Shown here piece by piece: positions 18,163 through 20,959 of a DNA stretch of 23,016 nt. The stretch lies in the IMG/VR virus record IMGVR_UViG_2531839468_000018, positions 1-23,016 of that record; one strand, given 5' to 3'. The notes beneath the pieces were generated by a model. It was not told the DNA's origin and did not search any database. It saw nothing but the letters and a program-made list of their open reading frames with translations. A program made the position numbers and the translations under genes. Origin of the DNA: a virus (Duplodnaviria > Heunggongvirae > Uroviricota > Caudoviricetes). Within the stretch, counting starts at the first letter, position 1, and each line of letters opens with the position of its first letter.

Positions 18163-18366
18163 ATGGAAGTGATTCTGAAATCAAAAAATGGTGTACACGT
18201 ACATTTAGATGCTAATGATTCTAGAGGATTGTTAAATCTGAAATATCTATGTTCTCTCCTAGATGTTCCATATGAAGGAGTAAAAGCCCGTATGTTCAGA
18301 CTAAACGAGAGTATTGATCAAGCTCTACACCATTTCTTAAGCAAAGAAGGTGATAAAAATGATTAA
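18163..18366 (+). CDS. Hypothetical protein (67 aa)
   Basis: ATG after GAGAGGTGA. Confidence 0.5.
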   Translation: MEVILKSKNGVHVHLDANDSRGLLNLKYLCSLLDVPYEGVKARMFRLNESIDQALHHFLSKEGDKND

Positions 18367-18380
18367 TAAGGGGATTTTAA

Positions 18381-20210
18381 ATGTTAGAAATTAACACTTC
18401 TAAAATTAAGAACACAGTTACATTTAGTGTAGATAAAGACAGCTTGAAAAAAGCGAAAGACTCTATTACAGGCTTAAAGGAATTCGCAGAAAACATCAAG
18501 CCAGCTAAATTAAGGTTTGATAATGTCACTAAAGGCTATAAGAAAGCACAAAGTGAAGTAGATAAGATTACTAAAAAGCAAGCCCAGGCTGATAAAGCTA
18601 ATGCTAAAGCACAATTAGCCGCTCAACGTGTAGTTGCAAGAGAACAAAAAGCCCTGGCAGCACGTAAGGAGAAAGCTGAATTAAAGCTCCTTGATGTATC
18701 AAGCTCTATCAGTGCAATGCACCGTCTCTCTGTAGCGGAACAATACAAAGCTATTGCACAGGTTAGAGAGATAGCAAAACAATATGAGCAAGGGGCTATC
18801 TCGCTTGCACGTATGAATAGCCAAATGAAACGCCTACAACAACAACAACGTAAGATTAATGGCAACAGAAAAGCTCAATTTGCCCCCGTTAAGGGAGGAT
18901 CAGGGAATTCCGCCACTATGGGCGCTCTGTTATTTGGAGGCGCTACGGCTGCTGCTGGCGTGATGGCTGTTAGTAAAACCTCTGAATTTATGGCTAATAG
19001 CTTTGCGAATGCTGAAGCCCAAGGGGAGCTAATTCAACGTGCCAAGCTGGGCGGTGTAGACGTTAACCAGATGTATAATATTACAGAATGGGCGTATAAA
19101 AACGGCGTTGACTCTATGATGGGTGATCAAGGGGCTAGGAAATACCTGGATCAGATGAAAGATGTTAGGGAACGTGCCGCAAAATCCTACAGTGAAGCTG
19201 AATTGGTGAAAGATAAGCAAACCGGAAAATCTAAATGGAAAGGCGGTGATAACGCTATTAATGAACTTCTAAACATCGGTGTTATTAACAAAAGCGACCT
19301 TAAAAAATTTGCTGATAATCCGGCTGGATTAATTTCTAAGGCTGTTAATGGAATGATGAAAAAAGGGTTTTCAGACTCCCAAATTGGACAACGTTTAGAA
19401 GACCTGGGCGATGATTTGATGCTTACGTCAAAATATTGGCAACGTTCCGTTAAAGATGTACAAGAAAGTATTAATCAGCAAAAAGCCTCTGGAAAATGGC
19501 TAACAGAAACACAGCAAGAATCTATTGTTAAATTCAGGGAGTTAAACAGACAGCTTTCACAGCTTTCTGATGCAAGACAAGTAGCATTTGTAGACGGCTT
19601 TATGAAATCTCTCGATCCAAAAGTAACGGAAGAGTTTATGAAAAACCTTTCTAATCTCACTCCGTATTTTACGAAGCTGGGAGAAGCTACAGGAAGTCTC
19701 TTTGAAGCTATTATGAAGATTGTAAACTGGTTTAATCGTAATGATGATAAGACAGATGCTATTCAGAAAAATATGGGAGATGCACCGCCATTAAGCAATG
19801 ATGGGATGAAACAGAATCTTTCTAATCTCGTTCCTGACCAATATAAAGGCGCTGGCACTGCAACAACTACACCTGATAATAGTCATTCTCTCTTTAACAC
19901 GATTAAGGGATTGCTTTTCGATGATAATTCTTCTGTGTCAGATGTAAAAATGTCAGTCAATGAAGCACCGATAACCAATCTCAAACAGGGTGCTTTAAAT
20001 AATCTTGCAATGACAACTCCGGCTTATAATTTATCTCCTGTGTTTAATCTGAATCCGACCTTTGAAGTGGTAACAGAGGTTCCTCTTACTATTAATTCTG
20101 ACACATCAAGATTAAGCGATTATGTGGATTTTACAGCGAGAGCAAGTCGGGATAGCTTCTTGAAATCATTAACATTAACCAGCTTATCAGGACAATCCAA
20201 CGGCGGGTAA
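18381..20210 (+). CDS. Large hypothetical protein (609 aa): N-terminal K/A/Q-rich coiled coil, Gly/Ala-rich hydrophobic segment, large C-terminal region; tape-measure/pilot-like or membrane-acting
   Basis: ..QAQADKANAKAQLAAQRVVAREQKALAARKEKAELKLL.. then ..GGSGNSATMGALLFGGATAAAGVMAVS..; AT-rich codon usage; no family recognised. Confidence 0.6.
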   Translation: MLEINTSKIKNTVTFSVDKDSLKKAKDSITGLKEFAENIKPAKLRFDNVTKGYKKAQSEVDKITKKQAQADKANAKAQLAAQRVVAREQKALAARKEKAELKLLDVSSSISAMHRLSVAEQYKAIAQVREIAKQYEQGAISLARMNSQMKRLQQQQRKINGNRKAQFAPVKGGSGNSATMGALLFGGATAAAGVMAVSKTSEFMANSFANAEAQGELIQRAKLGGVDVNQMYNITEWAYKNGVDSMMGDQGARKYLDQMKDVRERAAKSYSEAELVKDKQTGKSKWKGGDNAINELLNIGVINKSDLKKFADNPAGLISKAVNGMMKKGFSDSQIGQRLEDLGDDLMLTSKYWQRSVKDVQESINQQKASGKWLTETQQESIVKFRELNRQLSQLSDARQVAFVDGFMKSLDPKVTEEFMKNLSNLTPYFTKLGEATGSLFEAIMKIVNWFNRNDDKTDAIQKNMGDAPPLSNDGMKQNLSNLVPDQYKGAGTATTTPDNSHSLFNTIKGLLFDDNSSVSDVKMSVNEAPITNLKQGALNNLAMTTPAYNLSPVFNLNPTFEVVTEVPLTINSDTSRLSDYVDFTARASRDSFLKSLTLTSLSGQSNGG

Positions 20211-20245
20211 TTCCCGCCATAACATTACAAGGAAAAATTATTATT

Positions 20246-20959
20246 ATGGCGACCGCCGGGATTTTAACCATACGTGCAGCAAATACTCCAGAACAACACG
20301 TTCAGGCTGTTTACAAAGCAGAACAAGATATAAACTCTACAAAAAACGAAAATAGCAAAGCTAATACAACAAAAGGCGAAAATGGATTTGCTATTGTTAC
20401 CAGTGGCTTGGCATCTTCTGGCAATGACGTTTATGAAAATTATATGGCACTGGCCTTTGATAGTGTTGACGATGTGAACGTGAGACGTTCGGCAGATGTT
20501 ACAAGCTACCCCGTAGAAAATGGTGCTACTGTGTCTGATCACGTTCAAATTAAAAACAATAAATTTTCTCTTAAAGGAAGGATCACTGAAACACCGATTA
20601 AAAGCGATCCTGGCTTGTTAAAGAGTGCAGGGGTGAACGGGAACAGAAGATCATTAGCTATCGACTACCTGAATCAGATTATGGACAGTAGACAGCCTTT
20701 TCTTCTTGTTACAGAAAATAAAACTTTTGAGAACGTTGTTTTAACAGGCATCGAATACACAGAAGAGGCAAGCGAATCCCTGGTATTTGATCTTAGCTTT
20801 GAGCAAATAAGATTAGTTTCTTATGGCACTGTAAACACTGTAGCTATCAAAACACAGCCATCTAAGAACATCGGGGCTAATATGAAAAAACGTGTTAACA
20901 CTGAAAAATCAAGTAGTGAAGGTGAAGACACTATTACTCCTGCCTTTAAACAGGAATAG
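20246..20959 (+). CDS. Hypothetical protein (237 aa)
   Basis: ATG start after AAGGA; convergent with integrase; hairpin GAGGCT..AGCCTC in the 80-bp gap. Confidence 0.55.
   Translation: MATAGILTIRAANTPEQHVQAVYKAEQDINSTKNENSKANTTKGENGFAIVTSGLASSGNDVYENYMALAFDSVDDVNVRRSADVTSYPVENGATVSDHVQIKNNKFSLKGRITETPIKSDPGLLKSAGVNGNRRSLAIDYLNQIMDSRQPFLLVTENKTFENVVLTGIEYTEEASESLVFDLSFEQIRLVSYGTVNTVAIKTQPSKNIGANMKKRVNTEKSSSEGEDTITPAFKQE

Follow-up and report, generated by a model that had tools for sequence, protein, structure and literature searches.

A tape measure and tube initiator gene module in a probable integrative satellite of phi92-like phages

Detailed knowledge of satellites of virulent phages is limited to a single pair, the PLEs of Vibrio cholerae and their helper ICP1. 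Every Vibrio PLE carries genes for a chaperone, a tape measure protein and a baseplate hub protein, which share 19-41% identity with the respective ICP1 proteins. Of these, the tape measure and hub proteins are selectively incorporated, resulting in chimeric tails that are ∼10 nm shorter, and deletion of the PLE tmp gene reduces transduction by 96-99.9% (bioRxiv 10.1101/2025.01.29.635557). As of 2025, no satellite besides the PLEs had been reported to carry a tape measure protein and to assemble chimeric tails (bioRxiv 10.1101/2025.01.29.635557). Here, a 23,016-nt stretch (IMG/VR record IMGVR_UViG_2531839468_000018, positions 1 to 23,016, hereafter the window) was analyzed with emphasis on three adjacent genes at 18163-20959. 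These genes probably constitute the tail module of an ∼11.8-kb integrative satellite of phi92-like (Stephanstirmvirinae) virulent Escherichia coli myophages. In the literature searched, neither a satellite of phi92, rV5, phAPEC8 or Stephanstirmvirinae phages nor an Enterobacterales satellite with a tape measure gene was described, absence from that literature not being proof.

The tail gene trio

The three genes are the following.

18163-18366, + strand: conserved small protein of 67 amino acids (o67), directly 5′ of the tape measure gene (open reading frame call)
18381-20210, + strand: tail tape measure protein homologue, 609 amino acids (phrog_16051, phi92 gp134, PDB 21vq_V)
20246-20959, + strand: tail-tube initiator (Dit_like baseplate protein) homologue, 237 amino acids (PF21821, phi92 gp135)

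All three open reading frames (ORFs) had been listed in an initial annotation of the window. They were recovered by ORF calling and are also called as genes by RefSeq in E. coli MB06234, to which the window is essentially identical (99.97-100%) from position 11672 onward. The ratio of nonsynonymous to synonymous substitution rates (dN/dS) was determined by comparing the window with diverged E. coli island copies and amounted to 0.00-0.05 for the 67-aa gene, 0.20-0.25 for the 609-aa tape measure gene and 0.03-0.07 for the 237-aa tube initiator gene; the capsid gene of the same element gave ∼0.12. Given the values of 0.00-0.25 for the trio, these are functional genes under purifying selection and not chance ORFs. 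The phages phi92, phiWec188, 05F01, and KP13-16 share with the window this order of small protein, tape measure and tube initiator.

The 609-aa protein matched PHROG 16051, annotated as tail length tape measure protein (E = 2.7e-53, residues 155-609), and could be aligned end to end with the 659-aa protein gp134 of phi92 (E = 6e-34), being 74% identical to it over residues 1-42 and 27% over residues 150-609. It also matched chain V of PDB entry 21vq (E = 1e-37), a solved structure in which both phi92 gp134 and gp135 are chains. A tblastn search with the protein returned only Stephanstirmvirinae myophages of ∼145-155 kb (Justusliebigvirus, Phapecoctavirus and relatives). The initial annotation had offered a tape-measure-like structural protein as one of two options for this gene, and it is this option that the homology bears out. 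The ∼400 C-terminal residues, earlier considered free of recognizable motifs, fall within the PHROG profile match.

Composition and hydropathy agree with this assignment. As noted earlier, a K/A/Q-rich stretch (residues 1-170: 15.3% lysine, 14.7% alanine and 9.4% glutamine) precedes a hydrophobic, Gly/Ala-rich segment, GGSGNSATMGALLFGGATAAAGVMAVS (residues 172-198), which contains the sole strong hydrophobic peak of the protein (residues 179-197; Kyte-Doolittle 1.6 over 19 residues). Tape measure proteins are expected to have a long helical or coiled N-terminal part ahead of such a segment, a pattern that the 609-aa protein shows by composition and hydropathy. In phi92 gp134, the equivalent hydrophobic Gly/Ala segment lies at residues 245-263.

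In an alignment of six tape measure sequences, both ends of the protein were conserved, with MLEINTSKIxNTVTFxVDK at the N-terminus and SDxSRLSDYxDF...SLTL...SGQS at the extreme C-terminus, and ∼50-60 residues of the coiled coil present in the phages were missing from the island proteins. Over its first 87 nt, the gene shares 85% identity with that of the phage. Overall, island tape measures count 609-630 residues versus 635-659 in the phages. Judged from these alignments, the 609-aa protein is a full-length tape measure protein of which the central coiled coil has diverged and is ∼50 residues shorter.

The 237-aa protein scored 102 bits against Pfam Dit_like PF21821 (cutoff 24.2, E = 3e-29); the match extends over positions 1-126 of the 127 in the profile. 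It shares 61% identity with phi92 gp135 (E = 2e-93; PDB 21vq_N, E = 3e-79). Among the chains named tube initiator by their depositors, it matched those of 9cuy/9mjn (9cuy_K, E = 3e-13) and of cyanophage Pam3 (gp17, 7yfz_a, E = 1e-6). At the nucleotide level, the gene is 68% identical to Justusliebigvirus genomes. These homologies identify the protein as a tail-tube initiator. The tube initiators of E. coli and Klebsiella islands are 57-66% identical to phage proteins versus 50% to each other; repeated exchange of this gene between islands and phages is therefore suggested.

The 67-aa protein belongs to a family of 49 clusters, found only on Enterobacterales chromosomes and always encoded between the capsid and tape measure genes. 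It matched no Pfam, PHROG, or NCBIfam family, and neither BLASTP nor hhalign revealed similarity to phi92 gp133 and its relatives. An AlphaFold2 (AF2) model, with a predicted local distance difference test score (pLDDT) of 74, consists of a β-hairpin and three helices; a Foldseek search of this model against the PDB gave nothing better than E = 0.8. The gene occupies the position of phi92 gp133, an unannotated small gene just 3′ of the annotated chaperone gene gp132. By position, the 67-aa protein could be a tape-measure chaperone; by helix pattern, it could alternatively be a small DNA-binding regulator.

The island and its candidate packaging site

The element comprises window positions 9035-22479 at thrW and measures ∼11.8 kb without an insertion sequence (IS). 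Its features outside the trio are listed below.

9035-9080, + strand: attL, a copy of the 3′ 46 nt of tRNA-Thr (thrW), with core ACTCCTATTATCGGCACCA at 9062-9080
10201-10246, + strand: 46-nt terminal-repeat-boundary-like sequence, candidate packaging-signal mimic (44/46 versus phi92 363-318)
10362-11671, − strand: IS3-family insertion, not part of the element (rve/HTH_Tnp_1 domains; orfA/orfB)
12499-12606, no strand assigned: iteron array, GGTAGGTCAYWGTGARCTA units at ∼22-nt spacing, probable origin
14261-14950, + strand: replication-initiator-like protein of 229 amino acids with HTH_36 domain (phrog_270, E = 5.8e-9; Pfam HTH_36)
16145-16173, + strand: strong sigma-70-like promoter candidate for the capsid/tail operon (TTGACA-17-TAATAT with TG, 10/12, by consensus match only)
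16459-17030, + strand: conserved 70-aa and 120-aa proteins 5′ of the capsid gene, kept with it in related islands
17049-18077, + strand: major capsid protein of the element, 342 amino acids (Pfam Phage_cap_E, E = 3.7e-16)
18094-18128, + strand: terminator-like hairpin (18094-18118) and T run in the gap between capsid gene and trio
21041-22405, − strand: tyrosine integrase with DUF6538, SAM-like and catalytic domains (Pfam Phage_integrase, E = 1.7e-17; DUF6538)
22461-22479, + strand: attR core repeat ACTCCTATTATCGGCACCA, 19 nt

An integrase and att sites thus bound a discrete small element, as in a satellite. RefSeq annotates the integrase at window positions 21041-22318. The IS3 insertion, which adjoins the right side of the terminal-repeat-like site, is missing from MB06234 and from the metagenome copies; the sole Rfam match, an ALIL frameshift pseudoknot (11221-11337), lies within it. 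The iteron array is situated ∼1.7 kb 5′ of the replication-initiator-like gene and is the probable replication origin.

ORFs of at least 52 amino acids between the flanking repeats and outside the IS were scanned against Pfam and PHROG. The only structural genes found were those of the capsid protein, the tape measure and the tube initiator; no portal, protease, terminase, sheath, tube, fibre, or lysis matches were obtained, in keeping with a satellite, which cannot build particles on its own. Further small ORFs are also present. The capsid protein is 22% identical to phi92 gp124 over its full length. The 70-aa and 120-aa proteins encoded 5′ of it, possibly head accessory proteins, matched no Pfam, PHROG, or NCBIfam family; the 120-aa protein showed no similarity to the phi92 decoration protein gp123 and its AF2 model was unusable (pLDDT 44).

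The trio lies between a terminator-like hairpin and the convergent integrase, as described in the initial annotation. No sigma-70-like promoter was found between the hairpin and o67. Since no promoter-like site separates the hairpin from the trio, the hairpin probably acts as an attenuator, with the trio expressed by attenuated read-through; the capsid gene of phi92 is likewise followed by a hairpin with T run. The promoter-like site is separated from the capsid operon's first gene by a ∼285-nt leader (16174-16458) with a G/C-rich palindromic stretch, GGGGAGTAAAATCTCCGCTCCCC. The leader, for which no Rfam match was found, could be regulatory.

The candidate packaging site is a non-coding stretch that is 96% identical over 46 nt to phi92 positions 363-318, with similarity running on to ∼10275. 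In phi92, the inner end of the left terminal repeat, annotated as 343 bp long, falls within these positions. In other Justusliebigvirus records starting at the repeat, the 46-mer is likewise at 318-363; in all, 62 phage records match it, and its carriers include phi92, EmilieFrey and JohannJBalmer. The site is kept in all E. coli island copies covering that part of the element. Two variant islands (L023, L025) carry a diverged allele; among phages, it is matched best by records of Phapecoctavirus, the matches lying 273-357 nt away from the ends of these genomes. When the outer boundary of the phi92 terminal repeat was sought in the island, the score was no better than that of shuffled controls. 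The simplest reading of these matches is that the site mimics the recognition or cleavage site of the helper terminase. If this is true, the mimic would pinpoint the packaging site of phi92-like phages. Directly 5′ of the site, at ∼10135-10185, five phased 10-bp repeats occur (ATAAATAGCC and variants, one copy reading TATAAATA), an array that may bend DNA or bind protein.

Of 5,426 complete E. coli genomes, 260 contained at least 80% of window positions 13000-23016, which hold most of the element. Two prophages of the O157 Sakai genome were compared with the element and do not correspond to it, Sp1 being a degraded lambdoid prophage and Sp2 P4-like. In metagenomes, a circular MEGAHIT contig (L005; ENA ERZ27234697 k141_41860) of 11,954 bp with a 141-nt terminal overlap consists of island sequence only, corresponding to a unit length of ∼11.8 kb. 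In L005 and two further contigs (L006 and L009), representing three independent samples (source samples ERZ27234697, SRR11125169 and SRR11183716), the integrase end is joined to the left end via the att core ACTCCTATTATCGGCACCA. Contig and junctions fit an excised circle or a concatemer. The attP-junction pattern had no matches in JGI metagenome contigs, and a single match in IMG/VR was rejected as a junction with a different neighbouring island. Matches of the capsid protein in IMG/VR were all stretches of isolate genomes and are uninformative on packaging.

Related islands were found across the Enterobacterales. The capsid protein family counts 82 relatives among 1.84 billion representative proteins, and a contig search with an alignment of five capsid sequences yielded related loci in Escherichia, Citrobacter, and Erwinia. 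The 67-aa and 120-aa families occur on chromosomes only, namely of Escherichia, Klebsiella, Enterobacter, Citrobacter, Kluyvera, Cronobacter, Leclercia, Erwinia, and Pantoea. Gene order is conserved: genes for proteins of ∼71 and ∼119 aa come first, then capsid, o67 and tape measure (609-630 aa), and behind these a variable slot and the integrase. The core of capsid, o67 and tape measure is kept in the Klebsiella, Enterobacter, Citrobacter, Pantoea, and Erwinia islands, and the content of the slot between tape measure and integrase differs as follows.

E. coli and Klebsiella: tube initiator
Enterobacter: EAL-domain gene (cyclic di-GMP phosphodiesterase-like), opposite strand, 12102-12773 in L036/L037
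Pantoea: 155-aa gene without assigned function, 12472-12939 in L034
Citrobacter sp. NCU1: nothing

The initial annotation had considered the whole trio as candidate accessory cargo by its place next to the integrase. This description fits only the third gene, the slot of which varies among islands; the 67-aa and tape measure genes are core. Three groups can be distinguished among the island tape measures (Escherichia/Klebsiella, Enterobacter/Citrobacter and Pantoea/Erwinia). Each is nearest to a different Stephanstirmvirinae tape-measure lineage, and the N-terminus follows that lineage.

Some observations were made in passing. The Klebsiella and Enterobacter loci contain an ORF of 186-193 amino acids with a Phage_integrase domain, on the opposite strand and ∼1.5 kb left of the first small genes (L032 2472-3032, L036 2522-3103, L037 2613-3173); none was noticed in the window. 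At 15944-15983, the 19-nt sequence GAGATGCTCTGTAAGCGTG occurs twice, exactly and 21 nt apart, within a 120-aa ORF (15755-16117). The copies encode a repeated VEMLCKR peptide, which looks like a recent in-frame duplication. Finally, window positions 1-9034 form a separate IS-rich islet, in tandem at thrW. It holds a gene for an NleG type III effector (700-1389), transposase genes of the IS2/IS3 type as well as frameshifted ones of IS66, and two ORFs of 238 and 321 amino acids without Pfam match.

Proposed life cycle and competing explanations

Following infection by a helper, the element would excise and replicate from its own initiator and iterons. The capsid protein would be expressed, and the trio in smaller amounts by read-through of the attenuator behind the capsid gene. 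By their conserved ends, the satellite tape measure and tube initiator would dock onto the hub, chaperone, tube, sheath, and terminator proteins of the helper, replacing or competing with helper gp134 and gp135 in baseplate-hub and tube assembly. This would result in chimeric tails, predicted to be ∼8 nm shorter than those of phi92 (50 residues × ∼1.5-1.6 Å), which would join capsids holding satellite DNA, packaged by the helper terminase via the terminal-repeat-boundary mimic. Swapping these two parts of lumen and hub would probably favour satellite particles, divert the tail assembly of the helper, or both. We also lean, with less assurance than for the assignment of the trio to a satellite, towards a new Enterobacterales satellite family with its own capsid, chimeric tails and packaging by this mimic, the helpers exploited being virulent Stephanstirmvirinae of the phi92-like and phAPEC8-like kinds.

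Several points weigh against this proposal. Helper-driven induction, packaging and transfer are deduced from sequence, not from experiment. The Citrobacter, Enterobacter, and Pantoea islands are without tube initiator, which is thus not essential to the family, and the length gap between island and phage tape measures is small and not uniform. No homologue of a tail assembly chaperone was found in the element, nor could similarity to one be detected for the 67-aa protein. The capsid protein, with just 22% identity to that of the helper, would have to function with the helper portal and scaffold. Only one boundary of the terminal repeat, the inner one, is mimicked, and the 46-nt match could represent a regulatory or helper-sensing site instead of a packaging signal. 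The circular contig and the junctions, lastly, could stem from tandem chromosomal copies and not from excised circles.

A plausible explanation that is compatible with the main one, but that we hold to be unlikely as the main role of the trio, is interference. The tape measure and tube initiator would then mainly be dominant-negative decoys that poison assembly of the helper baseplate and tail, lowering phage yield and protecting the bacterial population without being parts of transmissible particles. The mosaic conservation, with termini kept and middle diverged, would suit decoys; satellites often interfere with their helpers, and tail assembly is a known target, for instance of the Tai systems (PMC11364771) and of PLE11 Rta, which acts on the ICP1 tape measure. 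Decoys are harder to reconcile with a full tape-measure architecture, hydrophobic segment and C-terminal domain included, that purifying selection maintains, with a tape measure that is a core gene beside the element's own capsid gene in every family member, and with the homologous PLE module, which enters virions and is needed for transfer.

Two further explanations were rejected. The structural genes are few and this copy was hit by an IS element, while IMG/VR places such regions inside predicted prophage stretches, so that capsid, tape measure and tube initiator might be leftovers of a decaying prophage without current role. We regard this as very improbable. The related phages are virulent myophages of ∼145-150 kb that lack integrases, the compact gene set is conserved across at least eight genera, and selection is evident from dN/dS values well below 1 for all genes tested. 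The att sites are moreover intact and a unit-length circular contig exists. The other option of the initial annotation, in which the 609-aa protein is an abortive-infection or superinfection-exclusion effector acting on the membrane, partnered by the 67-aa and 237-aa proteins and encoded as integrase-adjacent cargo, is given the least credence of all. It could draw on the one hydrophobic Gly/Ala-rich segment and on the variability of the integrase-adjacent slot in related islands. That segment is an ordinary tape-measure feature with its equivalent in phi92 gp134, the 67-aa and 609-aa genes are core and not cargo, and no trio protein had a PADLOC match (E ≤ 0.01). What contradicts a defence or toxin role is the clear tape-measure and tube-initiator homology to proteins of the solved phi92 structure; tape-measure homology was one half of what the initial annotation had named as evidence against defence, and it was found.

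A satellite tail module directed at phi92-like phages remains the probable explanation of the trio. The element is carried by ∼5% of complete E. coli genomes and has relatives in Klebsiella, Enterobacter, Citrobacter, and others. If the proposal is true, a tractable model would be at hand, phi92-like phages being held in public collections. Phi92-like and phAPEC8-like phages are used in therapy, and such islands may cut their yield or be spread by them.

Comparison with known satellites

As sequences, the trio proteins are closest to those of phages. The tape measure and tube initiator are direct homologues of phi92 gp134 and gp135 (21vq), and the tube initiators of Pam3 (7yfz) and 9cuy/9mjn are likewise direct sequence homologues. 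In phi92, however, the genes are part of a 148-kb virulent phage, whereas here they reside on a ∼12-kb, integrase-bearing chromosomal island.

P4-like elements resemble the island in being integrated elements of ∼11-12 kb with their own replication, a tRNA site and a myophage helper (proposed in the case of the island). P4 differs in having neither capsid nor tail structural proteins of its own and in that its helper, P2, is temperate, and no Sid, Psu, Delta, or alpha-primase homologues were found in the element. The cf-PICIs are also integrative satellites of Enterobacteria with their own HK97-fold major capsid protein, the rest of the virion coming from the helper. They possess, however, the entire set of head genes (portal, protease, head-tail connectors, small terminase) and take complete tails from temperate helpers, while the island has only a capsid protein with two small neighbours, plus tail genes. 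Among the ORFs of the element, Pfam and PHROGs revealed no portal, protease, connector, or small terminase. The element is thus outside the cf-PICI and P4 definitions, and a functional analogue only of the PLEs.

Like the PLEs, the element would be a small integrative satellite of a large virulent myophage, and it has its own tape measure and baseplate-core protein as diverged homologues of those of the putative helper. In both, the satellite tape measure is the shorter one (582 versus 677 amino acids for PLE, 609 versus 659 here) and tape-measure groups have been swapped among family members. The PLEs belong to Vibrio and ICP1, the present islands to Enterobacterales and Stephanstirmvirinae, and the likeness is one of function, not of a sequence comparison with PLEs. 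Differences concern the chaperone, which PLEs have and which is not recognizable here, and the second tail protein, which is the hub protein BhuB in PLEs and here a tube initiator 61% identical to that of the helper. Finally, PLEs remodel the helper capsid protein by TcaP, whereas the island encodes its own major capsid protein. If the proposal is true, this would be the second satellite family known to have a tape measure protein and the first in which capsid and tail-core genes occur together, and replacement of the tail core would be a general satellite strategy. What appears new, as read from the gene content, is a module of the chimeric-tail type combined with a satellite's own capsid protein.

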